Part shown: positions 5,350 through 32,843 of the stretch, piece after piece | How the letters are laid out: each line of letters opens with the position of its first letter | Numbering within the stretch: the stretch's first letter is position 1 | Source of the DNA: Candidatus Levybacteria bacterium RIFCSPHIGHO2_01_FULL_37_17 | Lineage (GTDB): Bacteria; Patescibacteriota; Microgenomatia; Levybacterales; UBA12049 | Assembly: GCA_001782035.1 (NCBI GenBank) | Contig: MFNL01000002.1 | Location: 124,865 to 188,864, forward strand | DNA: 64,000 nt | Direction of reading: 5' to 3' | Made by a program: the position numbers and the translations under genes | Notes under the pieces: generated by a model | Told to the model about the DNA's origin: nothing | What the model saw: the letters and a program-made list of their open reading frames with translations, nothing else | Database searches by the model: none

Positions 5350-6522
5350 ATGGATAAAGCGGCAGAACTTTTAGAAAGAGGGGTAGCAAATATCATTCCT
5401 GATAAGAATGTTTTGTTGGGAAAATTAAGAGGTGAAAAAAAATTAAATATATATCTTGGTATTGATCCAACGTCCACAAAAATTCATCTTGGTCATGCAG
5501 TAGCACTTAGAAAGCTTCAACAATTTGCAAAGCTAGGACACAATGTCACATTTTTAATTGGTGACTTTACGGCACTAATTGGGGACACTTCAGATAAAGA
5601 ATCGGAAAGACCGGCTCTTACTAGGGGGGAGATCTCCGAAAACTTTAAAACATACAAAAAGCAGGCGCAGAAAGTTTTGGATTTTTCAAAAGTAAAAATT
5701 AAATACAACGGCGAGTGGCTAAAAAAACTAATTTTTGAAGACATACTAAAACTAATGCAACATTTTAGCGCAGGCGATTTTGTAGGAAGAGAATTGATTA
5801 AAAAAAGACTCTCGGCTAATAAAAGGGTTGGCCTACATGAGCTTCTATACCCGGTTATGCAAGGCTACGACAGCTTTATGCTTGATACCGATATCCAGAT
5901 TGGTGGGACAGACCAAACTTTTAATATGCAGGCAGGAAGAACACTACTTAAAAATTTGAAAAATAAAGAATCTTTTGTCTTAACGACACCGATTCTCGAA
6001 GGAGCAGACGGTCGCAAAATGAGCAAGTCATTTGGAAATGCGATTTGGTTGGATGATTCGCCCACTGACATGTTTGCAAAAATTATGTCGATAAATGATG
6101 ACTTAATTATTCAATACTTTACTTTGAGTACAAACACGCCCCTTTCAGATATTAAAAACATTGAAAAAAGACTTGAGAAAGAGAATCCGATAAATATAAA
6201 GAAACAGTTGGCCTTTGAAATAGTTCGAGGGTTAGATGGCGAGAAAGCGGCCACCCTAGCTCAGCAAGATTTTGAGAGACTAGTTCAAAAAAAAGAAATG
6301 CCTCTGCAACTCAATACATTTACACCCACAAGTGGAGCATCTATCGCAAGAACAATTTCTGAATGGGCTAATATTAGTGCTTCGGAAGTAAAAAGAGTTA
6401 TAAATCAAGGCGGAATTGAGCTTGATGGGCAAAGAATTGATCTTTCCGAAGCAAAAAAACCAATTAAGATAGGGTCTATTGTTAGAGTGGGTAAAAAACC
6501 ACCTTTCAGGATCGAGAAATAA
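5350..6522 (+). CDS. tyrS: tyrosine--tRNA ligase
   Basis: HIGH-type motif (IHLGH), KMSKS, QGYD, and a C-terminal S4-like domain. Confidence 0.85.
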   Translation: MDKAAELLERGVANIIPDKNVLLGKLRGEKKLNIYLGIDPTSTKIHLGHAVALRKLQQFAKLGHNVTFLIGDFTALIGDTSDKESERPALTRGEISENFKTYKKQAQKVLDFSKVKIKYNGEWLKKLIFEDILKLMQHFSAGDFVGRELIKKRLSANKRVGLHELLYPVMQGYDSFMLDTDIQIGGTDQTFNMQAGRTLLKNLKNKESFVLTTPILEGADGRKMSKSFGNAIWLDDSPTDMFAKIMSINDDLIIQYFTLSTNTPLSDIKNIEKRLEKENPINIKKQLAFEIVRGLDGEKAATLAQQDFERLVQKKEMPLQLNTFTPTSGASIARTISEWANISASEVKRVINQGGIELDGQRIDLSEAKKPIKIGSIVRVGKKPPFRIEK

Positions 6523-6659: not shown

Positions 6660-8660
6660 ATGGATTTAAATACCCCTGTAGGGCTCGTATCAAGATCTTA
6701 CAAAATGTATGCAGGAAGGCTTTCAAAGCTTGGAATTTTTACAATCTATGATTTTTTGCTCCATATTCCATTCAGATACGAAGACTACTCTTTAATTTCA
6801 AAAATAGGACAAGTCCAAGCAGAAGAATTAATAACTGTAAAAGGCAAAATTGAAAAAATTGAAAATAGATACCTAAGGCGATGGAAAACCCTACAAAAGG
6901 CGCAAGTAACCGACGGCACTGGAACGCTTGATGTTATCTGGTTTAACCAACCTTATATTCCTAAAGCTATAAAAGTAGGCGATGAAGTATCGCTATCCGG
7001 CAAGATAGAGTTGGATAAAAACAAATTGATAATGAAATCACCGGACTATGAATTAGTAGTTGACAATGAAACTATCCATACAGGTAGAATTGTGCCTATT
7101 TATCCTGAAACTAAAGGAATATCATCTAAGTGGTTAAGAAGGCAGGTTTATAAAGTTTTAGACCAGTTTAAAGACCTCCAAGACTATTTACCAAAGGAGA
7201 CTTTGAGAAAAAATAACTTAGGCGATCTATCATATGCAATAAACTCAATCCACTTCCCCAAAAGTATGCAAGAAGTCGAAAGAGCAAAAGAAAGACTTTC
7301 ATTTGATGAAATGCTAAAACTACACTTGTTATCTTTAAAAAGAAAAAAAGAATGGAAAAAAGATAAAGTTAATCCTTGGAAAATTGACAAAAATAAGATT
7401 AATGAGCTTATTAAAATACTTCCTTTTGAATTAACCGATGCCCAAAAAAACGCAGTTGAGGAAATTTTAAGAGACTTATCTTCCAATCTTCCCATGAACA
7501 GGCTTTTAGAGGGAGACGTAGGAAGCGGTAAGACCATTGTTGCCGCAATTACAACATATGCATCCTTCCTAAATGGATTTCAAACTGCTTTTATGGCTCC
7601 AACTGAAATTCTTTCCTCCCAGCATTTCCAAACACTAGACAATCTGCTTTCACCCTTAGAAATAAAAGTCAAATTATTCACCTCAGGCTCTAAAAAAATA
7701 GACGACTTTGACGTTGCTGTCGGGACACATGCTTTAATCTATAAAAAAGTGCAGTTTAAAAAACTTGGACTTGTTGTAATAGATGAGCAACAAAGATTTG
7801 GGGTAGAGCAGAGAGCAAAACTGAGGCTCAAGGGTAAAAATCCTCATATTTTAACAATGACTGCGACTCCAATTCCGCGTACAGTTGCACTAACTATGTA
7901 TGGCGACTTAGACCTTTCGATTTTGGATAAGATGCCCAAGGGAAGAATTAACATCAAAACCTGGCTTGTTCCTCCTTCTAAAAGAGAAGGCGCATATAAA
8001 TGGATAAAGGAAAAGATAGAGCGAGAAAAAGACCAGGTTTTTATAGTATGTCCATTTATTGAGGAGTCAGAAAATATGATTACAGTTAAGGCAGCTAAAA
8101 AAGAATTCGAGCGATTATCAAAAGAGGTTTTTCCTAATTTAAAACTAGGACTTTTACATGGGAAGCTTAAATCAGGCGAAAAAAATGACGTTTTAAATGA
8201 CTTTAAAAACAAAAAGATAGATATTTTAGTTTCAACTCCGGTTGTTGAGGTTGGTATAGATGTTCCTGCGGCAACAATTATGCTAATCGAGGAGGCGGAA
8301 AGGTTTGGTTTGGCTCAATTACACCAGCTAAGGGGAAGAGTGGGAAGGAGCAGCAGGCAATCTTACTGTCTTCTTTTTACATCAAGCAATAATCCATTAA
8401 CGCTGAGGCGATTAAAATCTATGGAAAAAATTTATTCAGGCCCAGAGCTTGCGGAACTGGATTTAAAACTTAGAGGCCCAGGACAAATTTATGGGACCAC
8501 GCAACACGGAACTTTTCAGTTAAAAGTAGCTAGCTTTTCAGACATTGAGCTTATCGCGAAAACTAAAAAGGAAGCTGAAATTTTATTTGAAAAACTTCAC
8601 AAGTATCCAAAGTTAACAGAACAAATAACCCTAGGCGATAAAAAGGTCTCCCCAGACTAA
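6660..8660 (+). CDS. recG: ATP-dependent DNA helicase RecG
   Basis: N-terminal wedge region (FRYEDY), Walker A GDVGSGKT, DEQQRFG, and a helicase C domain. Confidence 0.9.
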   Translation: MDLNTPVGLVSRSYKMYAGRLSKLGIFTIYDFLLHIPFRYEDYSLISKIGQVQAEELITVKGKIEKIENRYLRRWKTLQKAQVTDGTGTLDVIWFNQPYIPKAIKVGDEVSLSGKIELDKNKLIMKSPDYELVVDNETIHTGRIVPIYPETKGISSKWLRRQVYKVLDQFKDLQDYLPKETLRKNNLGDLSYAINSIHFPKSMQEVERAKERLSFDEMLKLHLLSLKRKKEWKKDKVNPWKIDKNKINELIKILPFELTDAQKNAVEEILRDLSSNLPMNRLLEGDVGSGKTIVAAITTYASFLNGFQTAFMAPTEILSSQHFQTLDNLLSPLEIKVKLFTSGSKKIDDFDVAVGTHALIYKKVQFKKLGLVVIDEQQRFGVEQRAKLRLKGKNPHILTMTATPIPRTVALTMYGDLDLSILDKMPKGRINIKTWLVPPSKREGAYKWIKEKIEREKDQVFIVCPFIEESENMITVKAAKKEFERLSKEVFPNLKLGLLHGKLKSGEKNDVLNDFKNKKIDILVSTPVVEVGIDVPAATIMLIEEAERFGLAQLHQLRGRVGRSSRQSYCLLFTSSNNPLTLRRLKSMEKIYSGPELAELDLKLRGPGQIYGTTQHGTFQLKVASFSDIELIAKTKKEAEILFEKLHKYPKLTEQITLGDKKVSPD

Positions 8661-11906: not shown

Positions 11907-12442
11907 TATAATACCTCCGCTGAGAAACTTACCGAATATCTACCTGCCTGCGCATTTAAAGTTAGAGACTCTAGTTTTACAGACTTAATTACTTTTCCAT
12001 CAGACCCAAGAGAGACTAGGGAATGTATTACTTCATCAATTGAGCGCAAAGAAGCGCTGGACATTTCTATTTGTATCAACCTAGACTCGATACTCATAGA
12101 ATCGACAGTTACATTTTCCGGAATCTTTGAAAATACTGAATCTATAGATGCGGTGTAATCCATTCGGGAAGCAAGTAAAGAATTAATGTTATTCAGTCTG
12201 TCTTTTATTAAAAAATAGCTTGATAACTTTTTGGGGGAAGCACTAATCTGAGAAAGTGTTTGTGCCTGTTCGCTTTTGATTTTAGATATTGGAATTTGAG
12301 TGGTAATTATAAAAGCTGCGATAGAAAAAAACGCAATAGCTACAAGAAGCACTACAGCTATGACTCGTAGAATCAAAAGCAACCTTTGTTCTCTTTCCAA
12401 AGCGTCACTGCGGGTTGATACTAAATTAATACTGCTATTCAT
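11906..12442 (-). CDS. pilN: type IV pilus assembly protein PilN-like
   Basis: Small bitopic protein with N-terminal TM and coiled region, directly downstream of pilM. Confidence 0.55.
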   Translation of the reverse strand: MNSSINLVSTRSDALEREQRLLLILRVIAVVLLVAIAFFSIAAFIITTQIPISKIKSEQAQTLSQISASPKKLSSYFLIKDRLNNINSLLASRMDYTASIDSVFSKIPENVTVDSMSIESRLIQIEMSSASLRSIDEVIHSLVSLGSDGKVIKSVKLESLTLNAQAGRYSVSFSAEVL

Positions 12443-23130: not shown

Positions 23131-24063
23131 ATGGAAGTCAAAGAAGCGGCCGAAAATCAACCTTCAAATCCATACTTTGAAGTTCTTGCATCGGGAAATT
23201 TTAGCAAAGAGCAAGTCAATGCAAAATTAGTTCCACCTCCACATAAACCCGTAGAGCTTGTTACTGAAACTGAAAGAGTGTGGGAAGAAAAAAATAAACA
23301 AAGGATAGAAAATGGCAAACCACCAATGACAGATAATTCTCAACTGGCTATAAAAACTGTAACAGTAATAGATGGACAATTAGAAATTGATACTTACCCG
23401 GCAAAATATAGTGATTTAATTGCGATGCAAGACGCGTCTGTAAAAGCTAGATTTGGAGAATACGCTCCGCAGATTTTAGGAACAAATGTACTTACAAAAA
23501 CTGCAGACGGAAAGCTGATTATCGCGCAACGTGGTTTTAATGTTGCTACAAAACCAGGAGCCATGAGCGCCCCGGGCGGATACCCAAACCTATCGACTGA
23601 TTTAAGTGCTGAAGACGCTTGGGCTCCGTTTTCAACAGTAGGAAGAGAACTTAAAGAAGAAACCGGAATAGATGAAAGTGAACTTAAAAATGTAAACGCT
23701 GCAGGAATAATCTTTAACAAAACTGTAGGAAACCCTAGTATGATTTTTTTTGCAGAAACTGCACTTACTGCTGCGGAAATTGAAAAAAGAACTACTGATA
23801 AGGAAATAAATGTAAAGATTCTTCCCGATACCAAAGAAGATTTAGAGCATGCAATTCTTTGGTGGGCGTTTTCACCTAGTCCGAGTGGCGCATCTGCGCT
23901 TGCTTTATATGGAAAGCAGAAATATGGAGATGAATGGTTTAATTGGATTAACGAAAGGCTGACAAGAAGAGATATCGTTTATACGAGCATGGATGAGCAA
24001 CAATTGGCAAAGTTAAATAAAAGGGCGGCGGATAGGCTTACCAAACTTGTAGATAAAAGTTAG
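23131..24063 (+). CDS. NUDIX hydrolase family protein
   Basis: Nudix box core GRELKEETGI. Confidence 0.55.
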   Translation: MEVKEAAENQPSNPYFEVLASGNFSKEQVNAKLVPPPHKPVELVTETERVWEEKNKQRIENGKPPMTDNSQLAIKTVTVIDGQLEIDTYPAKYSDLIAMQDASVKARFGEYAPQILGTNVLTKTADGKLIIAQRGFNVATKPGAMSAPGGYPNLSTDLSAEDAWAPFSTVGRELKEETGIDESELKNVNAAGIIFNKTVGNPSMIFFAETALTAAEIEKRTTDKEINVKILPDTKEDLEHAILWWAFSPSPSGASALALYGKQKYGDEWFNWINERLTRRDIVYTSMDEQQLAKLNKRAADRLTKLVDKS

Positions 24064-24708
24064 ATGCAGAGTTTTTTAATAATTTCTAAAGATAAACAAA
24101 AAGCAAAGGACTACGTACTAGATTTTGCAAAAGAGAAAAAAATTTCAAAATTTGATATCTATACGCTGCAAACAGAAAAAGCTCTAGGAATTGAAGATGT
24201 AAAAAACCTTTTCTCCAAAATATTTTTAAAACCAATAAAAGGCGATAAGAAAATAGTTGTGGTAGAGGCCTTTTTGGGGGCAACAGTCGAGGCTCAAAAC
24301 GCATTTTTAAAAGTTTTAGAAGAGCCGCCATTTTCTACTTTTATTTTTTTACTAGCTTCTGAGAATTATTTTCTCTCCACAATAAATTCAAGGACGAAAC
24401 TGGTGCAATTAGATAGAGAAATAAAATTTACAGAGGAAGATGAAAAATTATGTTCTGAAATTGTTGAAAACTTAAAAAGCGAAACTATTGGATATAGATT
24501 AAAGCTGGCACAGGATATGGCAGGCGATAAAAACGAAGCAATACTCTTTTTAGAGAAATTTATAGTTTTTGCAAGAAACAACATGGTTAAAGAGCTATCA
24601 AGCGAATATAAAAAGAAAATTGACGTTTTAAATAAATACTACAAAAAAATAAAGGAATCTAATGTAAACTTGCGCCTTGCTTTGGAAAATTTATTCCTAG
24701 AACTTTAG
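24064..24708 (+). CDS. holB: DNA polymerase III delta-prime subunit-like (short)
   Basis: AQNAFLKVLEEPP, the clamp-loader sensor-1/NALLKTLEEPP-type motif. Confidence 0.6.
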   Translation: MQSFLIISKDKQKAKDYVLDFAKEKKISKFDIYTLQTEKALGIEDVKNLFSKIFLKPIKGDKKIVVVEAFLGATVEAQNAFLKVLEEPPFSTFIFLLASENYFLSTINSRTKLVQLDREIKFTEEDEKLCSEIVENLKSETIGYRLKLAQDMAGDKNEAILFLEKFIVFARNNMVKELSSEYKKKIDVLNKYYKKIKESNVNLRLALENLFLEL

Positions 24709-24755
24709 TTTTCCACAATTTGATATAATACCAACTTGTGGAAAGAGACAGACTG

Positions 24756-24771
24756 TTTGGTTTAAGAGCTG
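24756..24771 (+). repeat. degenerate sixth copy of island motif (TTTGGTTTAAGAGCTG)
   Basis: Matches the 3' half of copy 5 (TTTGGTTTTGAGCTG) plus a following AT-rich stretch. Lacks the CGAAAA 5' part. Confidence 0.4.
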
Positions 24772-24971
24772 ATAATAAAATTGAATGGCATTTAAACCCC
24801 CAAAAAACTACACGAAAGCAAATACAGATTTGTTGCAAACGATAACCCAATACTGGACAAAATTTACAGATTAAAAATGGAAGATGCTCTTTGGGGTCCG
24901 TTAAGTCGTATGCCGCTACCAAGGCCAGAGCGTCTTTTTAGTATTCGTCACGCCTCGCAGAAAAGGTAGGC

Positions 24972-25757
24972 TTATTGAAGCCGTTTTTTATAGTCATCCT
25001 GCTCAAATCTTCCGAAAGGCTGACTCGTTAAATGAGCAAGCATTTCTTCTTCTCTTATGTCTTTAGCTTGCAAAAGTCCGATATTATGCCTTGCTATATC
25101 GTGAATTCTGTCCGGGCTCTCCCCCTCCAGACAATAGTAATCCGTGCCTAAATAAACAGACATAAATAGTGCTTCAAATGCATCTGCTTTCATTTCTTCA
25201 AAGACTGGATCTTTTAGATGCTCGCCCAACGTGTGTCCATGCTCATGAGCGAGAACAGATATTACATCTTCTTCTGTTGTATTTTCTTCTTGTCCTCTAA
25301 AACCTAACCTTATTCTAAACATGCCCCCAGAACGTCTCTTACAATCTCCAATTATAGTTCTGAAAATGTCTTTGCCGTATCTTGCCATCATAAATTCTCT
25401 TTCCAAAGGATTTTTTGGCATCAACTCACGCTGATCAACAAATAGTACCTGTCTACCTGCAGTTGGAAGATATACACCGCTTTCATGGCTTATTAGGGAG
25501 AGAACGTCTCTGTAATCTGCCATCACTCTTCTTCTGCTCCAACCTAACTCTTCTACATGATCATCTTCTGCTTCTTGAAGCCCAGTAATATCTGTTATTC
25601 TTTCAAAGACTACAACAGGCAAATGTTCTAAATTTATGGGATCAGGGTTGTCAACGGGAATTAGCTCTGGGGATTTAACAGGGGAGGGTGCACTAAACTG
25701 TACCTCTGGAAAAAAGACTTGGGTTGGTCTTAACATTTCAGTTCTCTCAACTCTCAC
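24972..25757 (-). CDS. ImmA/IrrE-family-like zinc metallopeptidase (HExxH)
   Basis: LAHEHGHTLGEHL matches the AHELGHxxxH zinc-binding motif of COG2856-type peptidases. GC elevated relative to flanks. Confidence 0.5.
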   Translation of the reverse strand: MRVERTEMLRPTQVFFPEVQFSAPSPVKSPELIPVDNPDPINLEHLPVVVFERITDITGLQEAEDDHVEELGWSRRRVMADYRDVLSLISHESGVYLPTAGRQVLFVDQRELMPKNPLEREFMMARYGKDIFRTIIGDCKRRSGGMFRIRLGFRGQEENTTEEDVISVLAHEHGHTLGEHLKDPVFEEMKADAFEALFMSVYLGTDYYCLEGESPDRIHDIARHNIGLLQAKDIREEEMLAHLTSQPFGRFEQDDYKKRLQ

Positions 25758-25815: not shown

Positions 25816-26121
25816 ATGGCAGCAGGAGTAGAAACAACAATTGCAAAACCACCAAAGTTGTCCCACTCACAGAAAATTTTGGAAGCAATCGATTTACTGG
25901 CTGCGGATGGGATAAGAGGCGCAACCCCAGATCAAATAATAGAAAGGGCAAAAAGGAAGCATCCTTCAAGACTCAATATCATTTTTCAACCATGGTGGGA
26001 TAATGCGTTTAGCAAATTGGAGGCTTCGGGAGAAATTCACGGCATACGAAATCCTGTATATACCCAAGACTCACCGTCCAATAGGCTTTATCAAAGACCC
26101 CTAAAAGAAAAAACTCGATAA
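25816..26121 (+). CDS. small putative winged-helix DNA-binding protein
   Basis: SHSQKILEAIDLLAADGIRGATPDQIIERAKRKHP resembles linker-histone/winged-helix globular domains. Divergent from the peptidase gene. Confidence 0.3.
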   Translation: MAAGVETTIAKPPKLSHSQKILEAIDLLAADGIRGATPDQIIERAKRKHPSRLNIIFQPWWDNAFSKLEASGEIHGIRNPVYTQDSPSNRLYQRPLKEKTR

Positions 26122-26137
26122 ATTTGGTTTGAAGAAG

Positions 26138-26614
26138 TTAATCCCAGCTTAGAGGATGTTCTGAATCTAATTGTCCAGCGTGGCGAATAAGGGAATTTAA
26201 TTCCGATCCAGCAATCCTATGATGACGAGAATAAATATGTCCTAGTTTATCCCAAAACTCTTTTTTTTCTGCGTCCGTTTCAACCTGGCCACTATGTTTA
26301 CCCCTAAAAGTTCCGAAATACCAGTCTACTCTTGTTCTGTTGTTAGCACGTCTGTGATCTTCGATTATTATAATATTTAGTGCGCCTTCTTTTGAATATC
26401 TATCAATTTGCGTCATATAAACAGTCGCCGGCATATCCGATCTTCCAGTGTCTAAGCCTAAAGAAGGCTCCCAATAATTGAATAGCGCGTCTTGAATTGT
26501 TTCCCAAGGAACAAAAGTGGCAAATGAAGATGGGCCCTTTCGGTTAAATTCTCGGCTTCTGGGCAGGTGAGCTGGTTTGTTTTCAACTCCCATTAGCGGA
26601 GTATAAAACCACAA
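26138..26614 (-). CDS. hypothetical protein
   Basis: 158-aa ORF in the GC-elevated island. Consensus minus-strand promoter (TTGACA-17-TATACT) 6 nt upstream of the ATG. Confidence 0.5.
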   Translation of the reverse strand: MWFYTPLMGVENKPAHLPRSREFNRKGPSSFATFVPWETIQDALFNYWEPSLGLDTGRSDMPATVYMTQIDRYSKEGALNIIIIEDHRRANNRTRVDWYFGTFRGKHSGQVETDAEKKEFWDKLGHIYSRHHRIAGSELNSLIRHAGQLDSEHPLSWD

Positions 26615-26630
26615 ACCAAAATTGTCAACC

Positions 26631-26646
26631 GAAAATTTGGTTTTGA
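26631..26646 (+). repeat. island motif copy 1 (GAAAATTTGGTTTTGA)
   Basis: Exact 16-mer between back-to-back -35 boxes (minus-strand TTGACA at 26623-26628, plus-strand TTGACT at 26649-26654). Confidence 0.8.
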
Positions 26647-26648
26647 AC

Positions 26649-26676
26649 TTGACTTTGCGAGCAGAAAAAGTATAAT
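26649..26676 (+). promoter_or_regulatory. sigma70-type promoter TTGACT-16-TATAAT
   Basis: Consensus hexamers with 16-nt spacer, read directly. Confidence 0.6.
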
Positions 26677-26774
26677 AAAATCATGAAAATAGAATTTTTT
26701 AAATTAGTAAGAAGAAACACCTCCCTCGTAGGCGGTGTGCTTTCTTTTGCGTAAAAAATAAATAAATTAGGAGC

Positions 26775-26799
26775 AACCGCCGAAGAGGCGGTTTTTTTG
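26775..26799 (+). terminator. intrinsic terminator (ACCGCC-GAAGA-GGCGGT + T7)
   Basis: GC-rich 6-bp stem followed by TTTTTTT, about 100 nt downstream of the promoter at 26649. Confidence 0.6.
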
Positions 26800-26829
26800 T
26801 GGCAAAATGCCGAAAGGAGGTGAGAAATT

Positions 26830-27156
26830 ATGACAGAAAAATTAAAACCAGCATATGAACAATTTCATATGTTAGAGGAACCTATAAAAGGAGTCCTAGT
26901 TTATCATGGAGAAAACTCTATTCCAATTGTTGGTACACTTATGGGATATGAGCATCACGAATATGCACGTTTTGCATTCAATACCCCAATCCTTGAGGAC
27001 ACTATTCACAAGGTCTCAGAGAGCACAAGGATGGGAGAAATTTACGTGCCATATTCGGTATATGCAAGAGCTCTTCGAGAGCTAGAGAGATATGGGCTCG
27101 GACAAAATCTTCAAAAAGAAGTAGGCGGAGCAAAAAATAGCAACCCTACTTCTTAA
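26830..27156 (+). CDS. hypothetical protein
   Basis: 108-aa ORF with strong RBS AAAGGAGGTGAG. Followed by a hairpin terminator. Confidence 0.55.
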   Translation: MTEKLKPAYEQFHMLEEPIKGVLVYHGENSIPIVGTLMGYEHHEYARFAFNTPILEDTIHKVSESTRMGEIYVPYSVYARALRELERYGLGQNLQKEVGGAKNSNPTS

Positions 27157-27160
27157 AACT

Positions 27161-27183
27161 AAAACCCCCGTTGCGGGGGTTTT
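27161..27183 (+). terminator. bidirectional intrinsic terminator AAAACCCCCG-TTG-CGGGGGTTTT
   Basis: Perfect 6-bp GC stem flanked by an A-run and a T-run. Confidence 0.7.
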
Positions 27184-27210
27184 AGTTTGGATAAGCCTCG
27201 AAATAACCCC

Positions 27211-27226
27211 GAAAATTTGGTTTTAG
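27211..27226 (+). repeat. island motif copy 2 (GAAAATTTGGTTTTAG)
   Basis: 14/16 identity. Preceded by AAATAACCCC. Confidence 0.8.
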
Positions 27227-27234
27227 GATACATG

Positions 27235-27262
27235 TTGACATTTATTTAGTTAGTTATATAAT
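27235..27262 (+). promoter_or_regulatory. consensus promoter TTGACA-16-TATAAT, 6 nt upstream of ATG (leaderless arrangement)
   Basis: Read directly. ATG at 27269. Confidence 0.65.
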
Positions 27263-27268
27263 CCCATT

Positions 27269-27502
27269 ATGGCGCAACAAGGAGAAAGAGGAATCTTCCC
27301 ACCAATAGATGAGCTCATGAAACAGGTTAGGGCAGAAGAAGCGAGAGAGCCGTATCGCGGACATGATATGCCACAAAGAGAAATAACATGTACTCCAGGA
27401 CAATCAGCTGAAATGACTCCGGGATTACTTCGCCTTGCCAAAAAGTGGGGGGATCAACTTAGACAGCCTAAACCTCGAAAAAAAACACAACCAAGAAGAT
27501 AA
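27269..27502 (+). CDS. hypothetical small protein
   Basis: 77-aa ORF, about 46% GC, with a leaderless-type promoter. Confidence 0.45.
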   Translation: MAQQGERGIFPPIDELMKQVRAEEAREPYRGHDMPQREITCTPGQSAEMTPGLLRLAKKWGDQLRQPKPRKKTQPRR

Positions 27503-27506
27503 CCCA

Positions 27507-27522
27507 GAAAATTTGGTTTTGA
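27507..27522 (+). repeat. island motif copy 3
   Basis: Exact 16-mer preceded by AGATAACCCA. Lies 5 nt after the upstream stop codon. Confidence 0.8.
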
Positions 27523-27554
27523 AAATATATTTTATTTAAGCTACATTTATATTA

Positions 27555-28874
27555 ATGACTGTAGACAGAAAAGAGGGTCCTGCAGGTACCACCACGCTCA
27601 AACAACTTGAATCTGATAGGCGCAAAATAGATATTAAAGTTAATTCAGGAAGAATACGCACTCTGGAAGGAAAAATTTTGCGTGGAACTGCCCGTCCTGA
27701 TCAAATATTTGAATGGTATTTAGTACAGGATCCTTTTGTAGAACAGCCTGCATTGAAAGTTTTGAACGGGGATATATCTTCGGTGCTTAATTTTCCTATC
27801 GAGATGACTCAGAAATCTTACGCCTATGGAAAAGCAGCAGATATTTTATTAGCAGCTTGCGGCGTAGAACCGGAAACAATGGATGACTTCAAACAAAAAC
27901 TACTTACAGAGCAACCAATAGATTTTTATAGAAACCTTTTTTTAGCAGCAGAATTAATGTGGGAATCCAGCGGAAATCTAAGATTGGCCGAACCACTACT
28001 TCAACAAATGGGTATAAATACTATATTTAATAATGATCCCGTATTTAACAACACAAGAGGGCGGCAAGAGCTTTTAGGACAGACGTCTCATGTAATATTT
28101 GATGCAATAGGAAATTCGATATTGCAAAATGATCAAATAAAAGATCCTGAAACCCTAATGATTGGGCTGGACGCCCACTGGAAACTTCTAGCGGACTTAA
28201 TGCAAGGACGAGAAGGCGATGAAGTAAGCATACAAAAAATATTAAAAAAGAAATTACTTCAAAGTATGATATCTGATCTTAGAACTGTGTTTTTAACAGA
28301 TAGAAGTCCACTAAAAAACAAAGATGTTCCAAAATCTTTATTAAAAGGCAAGCTTATGGAATACGTATGGCTTTTAGATTCTCATGTTTTTTTAGCTGCT
28401 GAAGAAGATTTTATAACCATGGTTTTTCCTACTAATTATTATGTTGATATGCCACACTTGGGCCATCCCGTTCTAAAAAGAGGAGCTGATATCCAAATAA
28501 GAAATATTGACAGAAGTATAGATTATTACGTACAACTTAAGTCTTCGCACGCTCAAAGTGGCAGGCCATATCATCCTGCAATTACTGTTGTATGTGAAGA
28601 CAACTTCCAAGATATAAATCCTGGAAGATTATTCAAAAAACTTGAAGCTTACCAAAAATTTGTAGACTCAGATTTTTCAACAGAAGATGGAAACGCAGCT
28701 AGAAAATACATTCTTCCATCGGTAGCTGAAACTCTAAACTTAAGGGAGACAAACAAGCATATAGTGGCGGAACTTGCGAAAATTCATGGAATTCCAAGAA
28801 ATGAACAATTATCAGAATTTACTTATAGACGTTTTATGGATTTTGTTAGTCCGCGAAGAAGGACATTAAAATAA
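27555..28874 (+). CDS. hypothetical protein (439 aa)
   Basis: Long ORF without recognisable family motifs. The segment GADIQIRNIDRSIDYYVQLK is weakly reminiscent of a PD-(D/E)xK nuclease core. Confidence 0.55.
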   Translation: MTVDRKEGPAGTTTLKQLESDRRKIDIKVNSGRIRTLEGKILRGTARPDQIFEWYLVQDPFVEQPALKVLNGDISSVLNFPIEMTQKSYAYGKAADILLAACGVEPETMDDFKQKLLTEQPIDFYRNLFLAAELMWESSGNLRLAEPLLQQMGINTIFNNDPVFNNTRGRQELLGQTSHVIFDAIGNSILQNDQIKDPETLMIGLDAHWKLLADLMQGREGDEVSIQKILKKKLLQSMISDLRTVFLTDRSPLKNKDVPKSLLKGKLMEYVWLLDSHVFLAAEEDFITMVFPTNYYVDMPHLGHPVLKRGADIQIRNIDRSIDYYVQLKSSHAQSGRPYHPAITVVCEDNFQDINPGRLFKKLEAYQKFVDSDFSTEDGNAARKYILPSVAETLNLRETNKHIVAELAKIHGIPRNEQLSEFTYRRFMDFVSPRRRTLK

Positions 28875-28878
28875 CCGC

Positions 28879-28894
28879 GAAAATTTGGTTTTGA
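28879..28894 (+). repeat. island motif copy 4
   Basis: Exact 16-mer preceded by AAATAACCGC. Lies 4 nt after the stop of the 439-aa ORF, in a convergent gap. Confidence 0.8.
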
Positions 28895-28899
28895 AATTC

Positions 28900-29088
28900 T
28901 TATGCAGAAGTTCTGTGCGGTCGTAATCCTGCTTTTCTTTGCCTGTGATATTCGCTGGCTGTGATTCCTTCTCCTCGATCAACAGCGTCAATTTGTCCTT
29001 GAACCATTTTGCCAAATGCTTCTTTTCCACCGGCAGATCGATATAAAGCTGAAAGAACCCTTCCCTGTACGCTTCTTTCTACTGGCAT
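28900..29088 (-). CDS. hypothetical small protein (62 aa, Gly/Arg/Lys-rich)
   Basis: GC-rich (about 52%) ORF with its own minus-strand TTGACT-16-TATTAT promoter abutting motif copy 5. Confidence 0.35.
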   Translation of the reverse strand: MPVERSVQGRVLSALYRSAGGKEAFGKMVQGQIDAVDRGEGITASEYHRQRKAGLRPHRTSA

Positions 29089-29127
29089 AATAAGTCAATA
29101 ATACTACTTAAATGCTAAAAGTCAAGC

Positions 29128-29143
29128 GAAAATTTGGTTTTGA
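29128..29143 (+). repeat. island motif copy 5
   Basis: Exact 16-mer. TTGGTT within it serves as a -35, with 17-nt spacer to TATAAT (29157-29162), then 6 nt to the ATG at 29169. Confidence 0.8.
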
Positions 29144-29168
29144 GCTGCAATAGTAATATAATTCCTTC

Positions 29169-29693
29169 ATGTGGAATTTAATTCAAAATGAATGGGAAAA
29201 AATTCCTCAAAGTTTAAGAACGTTTATAGAAATAGGCGTTGTGCTAGTCTTTAACTCCTGGCTACTTGATCATTGGAACTTAAGCGGAACTTTACCCTAC
29301 AAATATCTTGGTAAATTTGATTTGAGAGAAATCAGTTATAACCTTGGAATGACTGCTATCTATGTATCGCTAGGGATAATTGTATTAAGGCTGATTATTA
29401 GTTTTCCCCAAGTAGTAAGTAATTATAAAAATAAATATCCAACAAAAAATATTGGTAAAACTTTTGAGCTAGTGTGGTTTAATGGTAAATTAATGCTTTT
29501 TGAACATAAAAAGAAATTATATTATCATGTCTATCCTTGGGAAACTGCTCAAGACCTAGACTTTATTTCATATGGAACTCACGTTGAAGATCATTTTCCT
29601 AATCCTAATAACGTAAAGGTAAAACTAGATAGCGGTAAGATGCTCGACACCTCAGAATACAAAAATGGGGGTAGTATAAACACTACTGTATAA
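29169..29693 (+). CDS. hypothetical membrane protein (2 TM)
   Basis: Two hydrophobic helices. AT-rich native composition. Confidence 0.5.
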   Translation: MWNLIQNEWEKIPQSLRTFIEIGVVLVFNSWLLDHWNLSGTLPYKYLGKFDLREISYNLGMTAIYVSLGIIVLRLIISFPQVVSNYKNKYPTKNIGKTFELVWFNGKLMLFEHKKKLYYHVYPWETAQDLDFISYGTHVEDHFPNPNNVKVKLDSGKMLDTSEYKNGGSINTTV

Positions 29694-29737
29694 TCCTATC
29701 AAGTTGATTTAAAAATAGGAAGAGATATAATTTCTCC

Positions 29738-30637
29738 ATGGGAAAAGATGTATTTAAAGAAATAGATGATATCATCGCGCAAATTATTAAAGTTTTAGAA
29801 ACTGAATATGACAATCTTATAAAAAGCGGTTATGGGCTTCAATTAAAATCAGATATTGCACGAGGATTAATAAAAGTCAACGGTATATACAGACCTTTCT
29901 CTGAAATGGAACATAAAATTTTATTTGATGGTTACGAAACAACTTTTATAGAAATGTTCCTAGAATTACATAAAAAAATGTATGAAAGATGGTACGAACC
30001 GTTGACTCAATTCGCCATAAGAACAATACATGAAATGGGTTTTAAGCGTACTCAAATATTATTTAATAAAAAACTAAACCCCCAAAAAATAAAAAAGTTT
30101 AAACTATTACTCATGTTAGCTGATTACGCAATGATCTCAGACATTCCTCTTCATAAAAATCACTATATAAAACTTTTGAAAGAATACAAAAATTTACTAA
30201 CCAAGAAAGAATTAGATTTTTATAAAATTCTAATTCCTGAAATAGAAAAAGCTGATCCGTTAGCTAGATACGAAAAAATAAGAACTGCTCGACAAAAAAT
30301 TAATACATTACAAGAAACTTTATTTTTAGAAACCGAAATATTGTCAATTTTCAGAAAAATAAACGTGATGTCTGTTAATTCTAGTTTTTCACATCTATTG
30401 CATGGAAATATTCTTTTGTTAAAAGACGTCTTACAGCTAAAGAGAGGTGACTCACCTCGGCTCAGGGTATACTGGATACTATTATTAACAGGGGTAAATG
30501 TAATTACTTATGTTGGAAATTTTTTAAATGAGTCAAATATCAATAAGGATGTTGAAAAAATTACAAAACAATTTATAGGTAAATCAGAATATATTAAGAA
30601 ATATTGGGAAGACCTAACCTCTAGAAATCCTTCATAA
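29738..30637 (+). CDS. hypothetical protein
   Basis: 299-aa ORF with no recognisable motifs. Confidence 0.5.
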   Translation: MGKDVFKEIDDIIAQIIKVLETEYDNLIKSGYGLQLKSDIARGLIKVNGIYRPFSEMEHKILFDGYETTFIEMFLELHKKMYERWYEPLTQFAIRTIHEMGFKRTQILFNKKLNPQKIKKFKLLLMLADYAMISDIPLHKNHYIKLLKEYKNLLTKKELDFYKILIPEIEKADPLARYEKIRTARQKINTLQETLFLETEILSIFRKINVMSVNSSFSHLLHGNILLLKDVLQLKRGDSPRLRVYWILLLTGVNVITYVGNFLNESNINKDVEKITKQFIGKSEYIKKYWEDLTSRNPS

Positions 30638-30710
30638 AATTTGCTCCATTCGACAGTGCTCTGGATCAAATTTAGATACTAGAAAAGCCTGTCTAAATTT
30701 GATAAACTGA

Positions 30711-32843
<2,133 letters not shown>

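Follow-up and report, generated by a model that had tools for sequence, protein, structure and literature searches.

Between the conserved genes holB and gyrB, a 64-kb stretch of Candidatus Levybacteria DNA (referred to here as the window, meaning the whole stretch that was analysed) carries an array of small genes separated by a 21-nucleotide (nt) element that is always repeated in the same orientation. This window comes from Rifle groundwater and belongs to a bacterium of the Candidate Phyla Radiation (CPR). We propose that the element is a site of recombination at cassette boundaries that now also serves as a -35 promoter box, a reading that rests on sequence comparison and to which we give a probability of roughly one half; the step that we infer is recombination at the site. 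Cassettes, each consisting of "content plus element" in the way that an integron cassette is an open reading frame (ORF) plus attC, would be gained, lost, and reshuffled at these sites. This exchange would be carried out by a sequence-specific recombinase whose gene lies elsewhere in the genome or, as a less specific possibility, by recombination between direct repeats.

An earlier reading of the window from its sequence alone had offered two explanations for the repeat, a shared operator or activator site of a small regulon or the recombination signature of a cassette array. The comparative evidence favors the cassette array, as the same element recurs in the same slot among different genes, its strand remains constant, and a sequence from another Rifle sample (L247) departs from the window at one of its copies.

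A repeated element at cassette junctions

A search of the window for the 16-nt core, GAAAATTTGGTTTTGA, allowing up to two mismatches, gave five matches within 2.5 kb, all on the + strand (26631, 27211, 27507, 28879, and 29128). Four of these are exact and the copy at 27211 has two mismatches. Dinucleotide-preserving shuffles yielded a mean of 0.24 matches and none of 100 shuffles reached five. The five copies and their single orientation are thus as the sequence-only reading had described them, and its view that they are not a random repeat is borne out by the shuffles and by recurrence of the element in other assemblies. It had also found the motif nowhere else in the 64 kb, which holds at up to two mismatches; one degenerate copy at 26114-26133 had been overlooked. 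A supposed sixth copy at 24756 shares only TTTGGTTT with the motif and is not a copy, because it falls within what is left of a cassette gene (24741-24848), one with a promoter and initial codons that are found again in related arrays.

The core lies within a sharply bounded 21-nt block, CYCC-GAAAATTTGGTTTT-GAA. A position matrix built from 22 non-redundant copies drawn from five arrays gave the full consensus C-Y-C-C-G-A-A-A-A-T-T-T-G-G-T-T-T-T-G-A-A, which we write as the search pattern CYCCGAAAATTTGGTTTTGAA. Fourteen positions, all among the 16 of the core, are invariant in the 22 copies, and information content falls to about 0.1-0.5 bits per position on both sides of the block. The extended flank ATAACC-N-C, noticed earlier in three copies, is real for copies 2-4; at copies 3 and 4 its TAA terminates the ORF upstream.

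On the + strand of the window, the full blocks span 26627-26647 for copy 1 (core 26631-26646), 27207-27227 for copy 2 (core 27211-27226, ending in AG), 27503-27523 for copy 3 (core 27507-27522), 28875-28895 for copy 4 (core 28879-28894), and 29124-29144 for copy 5 (core 29128-29143). The degenerate copy 0 (CTCGATAAATTTGGTTTGAA, 26114-26133, + strand) has the stop codon of the p101 ORF embedded in it (26119-26121), while copies 3 and 4 begin 4 nt past the TAA of the 77-aa and 439-aa genes, respectively. Such coupling to the preceding stop codon is usual. In 17 of the 22 copies, an ORF on the same strand, 74 codons or longer, ends 3-12 nt (median 4) before the element begins, and the remaining five copies come after a reversed cassette or a terminator. 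The strand of the element stays constant even where the cassette gene is reversed, and in reversed cassettes the gene's own -35 box abuts or sits close to the left edge of the next copy. Copies are found between convergent genes (copy 4, as had been recognized from the sequence, and L267 position 14545) and between two reverse-strand genes (L267 position 12279). The earlier statement that every gene junction carries a copy was too strong, as the p174/p299, p299/gyrB, and holB-proximal junctions have none. The GC elevation ascribed to the island is slight (0.39-0.405 at 25-28 kb, in a window ranging from 0.31 to 0.43).

The element is not palindromic and only an A4/T4 symmetry is visible in its consensus. 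Folding of 51-nt stretches on both strands gave -1 to -3 kcal/mol (z-scores of -0.7 to +1.1) and no hairpin, and neither of the two sub-threshold matches to Rfam, the only ones obtained, falls on the element. An attC-like hairpin or an intrinsic terminator was therefore rejected, the element forming no stem. We also rejected a stop-codon read-through peptide (PRKFGF at the 4-nt spacing) because spacings of 3-12 nt place the copies in all three frames. Scans with a 16-mer of genome and viral contig collections returned single chance matches only, a 17-mer scan of viral contigs returned two single matches, and the island DNA had no match in phage or plasmid collections; these results give no hint of a phage or plasmid attP.

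The same element in related arrays

Metagenome contigs were scanned with an extended 20-base pattern, and look-ups of holB homologues added one more locus (L267). The same element occupies the same slot in four other Levybacteria assemblies, with six copies in L262/L263, four and one degenerate in L261, two in L259, and, in L267, four within two mismatches along with several more degenerate ones. Wherever a fragment includes holB or gyrB, the array lies in the same slot between these two genes. These four assemblies share at most one cassette with the window and their other genes are almost all different; in the element-bearing arrays the only 11-mers repeated three or more times belong to the element. 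Restriction to the island, which the sequence-only reading had proposed to check, was found across the 64 kb of the window and some 90 kb of related loci, with the element confined to the slot in all of them.

The most distant case is L262, where holB is 43% identical to that of the window and no cassette protein is shared with any other array, while five of the six copies are exact. The element is identical base for base in two distant clades without shared array genes. Five further lineages (L268, L269, L272, L273, and L281; holB 48-68% identical) have a slot filled with small uncharacterised genes that lacks the element and has no repeated 11-mer of any other kind. Presence in two separated clades and absence from the lineages between them implies transfer or repeated loss, together with strong conservation.

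Matches to the 20-base pattern in L260, L264, L265, and L266 were set aside as chance, the one in L260 lying inside a glycosyltransferase-like ORF. We likewise did not accept the difference between L262 and L263 as a cassette event; L263 has three internal deletions, two of them inside gyrB, and the cause is probably an assembly problem.

Evidence for cassette exchange

One line of evidence for exchange at the element comes from L247, which is identical to the window over 2564 nt and then diverges 4 nt past copy 4. After the break it continues with a different promoter and gene start (MHERIRERPVEQ...), and this promoter resembles one that follows an element copy in L261. Cassette families also recur across arrays at different positions and in a different order. 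Families A, B, and C run A-B-C in L261 and B-C-A in L267, and the p261 and p101 pair, which is next to holB in the window, lies near gyrB in L268. The window gene p62 and its 40% identical homologue in L267 are both reversed and both have a copy 5-6 nt beyond the stop codon, on the other strand. Compared at like holB divergence, arrays with the element have fewer cassettes in common than arrays without it. The element-free pair L268/L269, with holB 75% identical, shares at least six colinear cassettes with 62-80% identity. Among element-bearing pairs, the window and L261 (75% holB identity) share none, the window and L267 (71%) share one, and L261 and L267 (75%) share four in shuffled order.

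Several observations weigh against recombination at the element. The turnover comparison covers very few pairs, and a single break point in the population falls at a copy; others lie at 29666 (L246) and at 30087 (L288, a 98% variant that starts at 29142). Look-ups of p174 and P0121 turned up no additional variant whose junction falls at a copy, and comparison at the level of assemblies revealed no excised circle and no clean "empty site". No recombinase domain was found in genes up to 10 kb from either end of any array. A single recombinase gene was found in the window; it is XerC/XerD-like, lies 15 kb away, and encodes no more than a possible factor acting on the element in trans. Lacking dyad symmetry and a hairpin, the element is unlike a typical core site of tyrosine or serine recombinases. 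Finally, the exact 17-nt spacing described in the next section shows a transcriptional role, which alone could explain the conservation.

The part of the slot from p174 to p299 is polymorphic too in the Rifle population, though not at an element copy. Several contigs end at 29707-29732, and population variants and assembly breaks are both concentrated at the p174 3' end and within p299.

A probable promoter role for the element

Across the window, many operon-first genes lack a Shine-Dalgarno sequence and have a TATAAT (at most one mismatch) whose end lies 6-9 nt ahead of the start codon (for example, the starts at 5350, 16375, 33328, 39120, 40717, 47025, and 59851). Because this arrangement is common throughout the window, leaderless transcription is probably the norm for this Levybacteria genome. 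Outside the island, -35 boxes are mostly poor. At seven of the 22 copies, the TTGGTT of the element lies exactly 17 nt before a TATAAT or TAAAAT, which is followed by ATG or GTG 6-8 nt on; a rough estimate from base composition puts the chance expectation for TTGGTT-17-TATAAT (at most one mismatch) at about 0.015 per copy. Copy 5 forms such a hybrid promoter, with the -35 at 29134-29139, the -10 at 29157-29162, and the ATG at 29169. Copy 3 contributes an overlapping TTGAAA 17 nt from TACATT, and the family C promoter of L267, AAATTTGACTTTAG, resembles the element with TTGACT in place of TTGGTT. These spacings suggest that the element supplies a -35 box to cassettes without one. As a portable -35, it would allow a cassette with only a -10 box to be transcribed as a leaderless mRNA wherever it is placed.

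Near-consensus sigma70-type hexamers had been said to abut every copy. They do so at copies 1, 2, and 5, which account for the four strongest copy-abutting promoter-like matches (three of them the best of the region), more weakly at copy 3, and not at copy 4.

The strongest alternative to a recombination site is that the element is purely a transcription signal, either a strong -35 or upstream module or the operator of a remote regulator, and that turnover of the cassettes has another cause. The hybrid promoters, the overlapping box at copy 3, the family C promoter, and the leaderless norm of the genome speak for this explanation, yet on balance we find it doubtful. About half of the copies precede a cassette that brings its own complete promoter, TTGACx-16/17-TATAAT, starting 2-12 nt after the element, and because this distance varies there is no fixed phasing. 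The regulon of the sequence-only reading is supported in part, by a -35 box at an exact spacing in seven of 22 copies; elsewhere the placement is not constant. At copy 4, at 12279 and 14545 of L267, and at 7285 of L262 there is no + strand gene downstream, so that at convergent junctions and between two reverse-strand genes the element can be neither promoter nor operator for such a gene. The tight coupling is to the upstream stop codon and not to the downstream start. The 14 invariant positions far exceed what a -35 box needs, and supply of a -35 explains neither these positions nor the copies that have no gene downstream. A generic promoter element was also rejected, as the element serves none of the other promoters in the 64 kb. 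As for a regulator, no protein encoded in the arrays co-occurs with the element; p101 (the 25816-26121 product), suggested earlier as a candidate binder, has homologues in arrays without the element and none were found in the other element-bearing arrays, and was rejected in this role.

Origin of the element and remaining alternatives

The element resembles the 3' end of holB. The last holB codons (LENLFLEL*) read GAAAATTTGTTTTTGG in L268, which matches the core at 14 of 16 positions (two mismatches) and is a better match than 99.9% of windows in its own locus; the holB end has three mismatches to the core in L261 and L273 and six (10/16) in the window. In L262, positions 6900-6995 are a diverged duplicate, of about 80 nt, of the holB 3' end and the first cassette promoter (the original lying at L262 3390-3480). 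An element-bearing junction in L261 with the same promoter family aligns to this duplicate with one 9-nt gap, and the promoter family (ATTGACAATyCAATyTAAt.TGCTATTAT) is also found after element copies in L261. Direct repeats around inserts are a typical result of integration at the 3' ends of genes. Taken together, this resemblance suggests that the element descends from the holB 3' end, which would then have been the original attachment point. The simple form of this model has difficulties, as the 3' ends of the holB genes are intact today and show no hybrid with the element. Nor is the holB end the current insertion point, because the genes next to holB in L267-L269 are conserved ones.

The same resemblance could mean that the copies are passive scars without present function, left either by successive duplications of the point where the holB 3' end joins the first promoter or by old integrations at that 3' end. 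The diverged duplicate inside the L262 array speaks for this reading, and integrations at a gene 3' end do leave direct repeats, as at orfX and at tRNA genes. We nevertheless consider scars unlikely. Scars should decay, and yet 14 of the 16 core positions are invariant in 22 copies and identical across clades at 43% holB identity. The sequence only 1-5 nt outside the block is unrelated, the intact holB ends count against scars as well, and the holB of the window itself matches at just 10 of 16 positions.

A tag for DNA uptake, read by the adjacent type IV pilus or competence machinery, with cassettes exchanged by transformation, is a far weaker candidate. In every lineage the array lies directly next to the pilB-pilT-pilC-pilin cluster, and the motif is short, asymmetric, and perfectly conserved, as are the known DNA uptake sequences (DUS) and uptake signal sequences (USS). 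Those sequences occur genome-wide at about one per kb, however, whereas the ~58 kb of the window outside the slot have no copy of the element. Five lineages with the pilus cluster and a variable slot have no element, and an uptake tag needs neither a fixed strand nor a fixed position relative to stop codons.

A chance repeat or assembly artefact, for which nothing beyond the AT-rich composition of the motif speaks, can be dismissed on the strength of the shuffles, of 100% identity of the region across independent NCBI, JGI, Logan, and ENA assemblies from several samples, and of the same element in unrelated samples and sites.

Genes of the slot and its surroundings

The copies lie in a 6-kb stretch that runs from holB to gyrB and adjoins the type IV pilus cluster; the same sequence is present in contig MFOU01000002.1 (GCA_001782495.1). 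The conserved left flank, holB (24064-24708, + strand; PF13177), encodes DNA polymerase III delta', and its homologues flank the slot in nine lineages. The conserved right flank is gyrB (30717-32843, + strand). Between them are nine ORFs of 62-439 aa, none of which matched a family in Pfam or PADLOC. The order is p261 (reversed) and p101, copy 0, p151 (reversed), copy 1, a leader and p108, copy 2, p77, copy 3, p439, copy 4, p62 (reversed), copy 5, and then p174, p299, and gyrB.

Next to holB is a 35-codon remnant of cassette family B (24741-24848, + strand), whose promoter TTGATATAAT and start GTGGAAAGA match junctions in L267-L269 and which has weak protein similarity to a 75-aa protein of L261. 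The gene p261 (24972-25757, - strand) encodes a 261-aa, metallopeptidase-like protein with an HEHGH motif, below the Pfam cut-offs, and has homologues (38-47% identity) at other positions in the L268 and L281 arrays. Paired with it is p101 (101 aa, 25816-26121, + strand), with homologues in the L268, L269, and L272 arrays, all without the motif. The reversed gene p151 (151 aa, 26138-26593, - strand) has its own promoter, TTGACA-17-TATACT (26628-26600), the -35 of which abuts copy 1.

The p108 cassette (26649-27184, + strand) consists of a promoter (TTGACT-16-TATAAT, 26649-26676), a leaderless 23-codon ORF (26683-26754), a terminator (26775-26793), a Shine-Dalgarno-led 108-aa gene (26830-27156), and a terminator hairpin at about 27162-27184. 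It is the sole cassette with a long leader. This leader, with its 23-codon ORF MKIEFFKLVRRNTSLVGGVLSFA, terminator hairpin, and GGAGG ribosome-binding site, looks like a leader-peptide attenuator; its match to the Rfam Trp_leader family is far under threshold (24 bits vs 41). The p77 cassette (27235-27502, + strand) has a consensus promoter, TTGACA-16-TATAAT (27235-27262), followed after 6 nt by a leaderless 77-aa gene (27269-27502).

The largest product is the 439-aa protein of p439 (27555-28874, + strand), a member of a rare family without assigned function that has only four homologues among 5.8 billion proteins. One of these, with 37% identity, is encoded by the slot gene nearest gyrB in L281. 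A structure model of p439 reached a predicted local distance difference test score (pLDDT) of 69.5, and fold comparison gave no informative match. The reversed gene p62 (62 aa, 28900-29088, - strand) has its own promoter, TTGACT-16-TATTAT (29125-29098), with its -35 abutting copy 5. The last two genes, p174 (174 aa, membrane-like) and p299 (299 aa), occupy 29169-30637 on the + strand and neither is followed by a junction element.

Many cassette ORFs start with M/V-E-R/K (ATGGAAAGA, GTGGAAAGA, ATGCACGAAAGA, ATGTACGAGAGA) in L261, L267, L268, and L269 and at 24741 of the window, which may point to a common N-terminal signal or to a sequence context favoured in leaderless translation. A conserved TAACCTCTAGAAATCC..ATTTGCT precedes gyrB in most lineages, whether or not they have the element (window 30655-30700; L259, L272, L273, and L281), and loosely resembles the C-rich prefix and GAAAAT of the element. 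We rejected it as a boundary site, as it is more simply, and probably, the gyrB promoter region.

Outside the slot, the XerC/XerD-like tyrosine recombinase gene (43845-44762, - strand; PF00589 and PF02899) adjoins a gene for a 739-aa Fic-domain protein (41623-43842). A peak in cumulative GC skew and a switch in gene orientation lie near 44-47 kb, a region that may hold the replication terminus and dif. Between pilB and holB, the window has a NUDIX-like gene (23131-24063) that in L261 (4153-5958) is fused to a C-terminal extension of about 290 aa and that is absent from this position in most other lineages examined (L262, L267-L269, L272, L273, and L281). The gyrB and gyrA genes of L272 (13269-15686, and 19718 onwards) contain intein insertions (PF14890), which the window genes do not.

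Comparison with known systems

The array follows the logic of integrons and of clusters of attC sites lacking integron-integrases (CALINs), and it fails membership in either class. As in those systems, mostly single-gene cassettes without assigned function are each followed by a repeat in one orientation that often overlaps the stop codon, and the repeats are near-identical within and between arrays while the genes differ. The array also has a fixed chromosomal place, cassette order and content vary among close relatives, and some cassettes are reversed with their own promoter. The repeat, however, is 21 nt long, compared with the imperfect inverted repeats of 55-140 nt (R''-L''...L'-R') of attC, and it forms no hairpin, whereas attC folds as a single-stranded one. 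A CALIN has two or more bona fide attC sites, which this 21-nt block without a hairpin is not. The array has no neighbouring IntI, no distinct attI could be recognised, and in place of a single Pc promoter each cassette has its own or borrows the -35 of the repeat. The host here, moreover, is a CPR bacterium.

Besides integrons, the nearest published analogue is the recombinase-associated acquired interbacterial defence cluster (rAID-1) of Bacteroidales, an array of many small genes with repetitive intergenic sequences, in which a conserved XerD-family recombinase gene heads the array and the genes are recognisable immunity genes (Ross et al., bioRxiv 10.1101/471110). The present array likewise has repetitive sequences in the gaps between its small genes. 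No recombinase heads the present array, in contrast, which is flanked directly by holB and gyrB, and its cassette proteins, which may still include immunity proteins, match no family in Pfam or PADLOC.

Inserts also gather beside a conserved gene in the composite islands of the staphylococcal cassette chromosome (SCC) at the 3' end of orfX/rlmH and in tandem islands at tRNA 3' ends. SCC-type units are bounded by short direct repeats that resemble the gene 3' end, and some have no recombinase of their own. The likeness is that inserts collect next to a housekeeping gene and are separated by short direct repeats. The units here are single genes of 0.25-1.4 kb rather than multi-kb elements, no unit contains a ccr or integrase gene, the resemblance to the holB 3' end is suggestive only (10/16 in the window, 14/16 in L268), and the holB-adjacent genes of L267-L269 are conserved.

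Xer/dif modules, such as the pdif modules of Acinetobacter plasmids and integrative mobile elements exploiting Xer (IMEX), are small gene modules with short sites whose host recombinase is encoded elsewhere. Small modules bounded by short sites, and an Xer-like gene in the window, are points in common. A dif-like site spans ~28 bp, with two partly symmetric 11-bp arms and a spacer of 6-8 bp, and alternates in orientation around pdif modules; the element is 21 nt long, has A4/T4 symmetry only and no stem, and always keeps the same orientation. The Hin/Gin sites hix and gix are 26 bp long with two inverted 12-bp half-sites. GGTTTTGAA / GGTTTTGGATAA presumably resembles one such half-site, which we treat as a lead only; the left half of the element is not an inverted copy, and no serine recombinase was found in the window.

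Other repeat families also differ. DUS and USS number hundreds to thousands genome-wide, while no copy of the element lies outside the slot in the 64 kb or in the flanks of the related loci. Clustered regularly interspaced short palindromic repeats (CRISPR) delimit units of tens of bases, whereas the spacings here are 249-1372 nt and hold complete genes. Unlike miniature inverted-repeat transposable elements (MITEs) and repetitive extragenic palindromic (REP) sequences, the element has no terminal inverted repeats or stable hairpin and is not dispersed in the 64 kb. A literature search found no description of such arrays in CPR bacteria.

Returning to the element as a recombination site, a more ambitious version would make it an independently evolved CPR analogue of the integron. 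Its site would be a linear, double-stranded 21-nt sequence unrelated to attC and possibly derived from holB, and a trans-encoded recombinase or integrase would insert, remove, and shuffle single-gene cassettes in the slot from holB to gyrB. Each event would regenerate or duplicate the site, as happens with CRISPR repeats or long target-site duplications, and the site would double as the -35 of the next cassette. We put this forward tentatively, as one possible scenario that more probably than not is wrong in some part.

Implications

The element looks like an integron-like gene-swapping site of a previously undescribed kind. CPR bacteria, with their tiny genomes and presumed dependence on host cells, gain genes by routes that are poorly known. 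If the reading is correct, a fixed slot that collects and reshuffles small genes, adjoining the type IV pilus genes and tagged by a precise 21-nt sequence, would be a mechanism of rapid adaptation in a large uncultured group. The array bears on how often integron-like cassette arrays arose and on whether a short linear site can replace the folded attC. The 21-mer is also a specific probe with which to fish such arrays, and their pool of uncharacterised genes, from metagenomes, and the hybrid promoter (TTGGTT, 17 nt, TATAAT, 6 nt, ATG) is a compact signal for leaderless expression.

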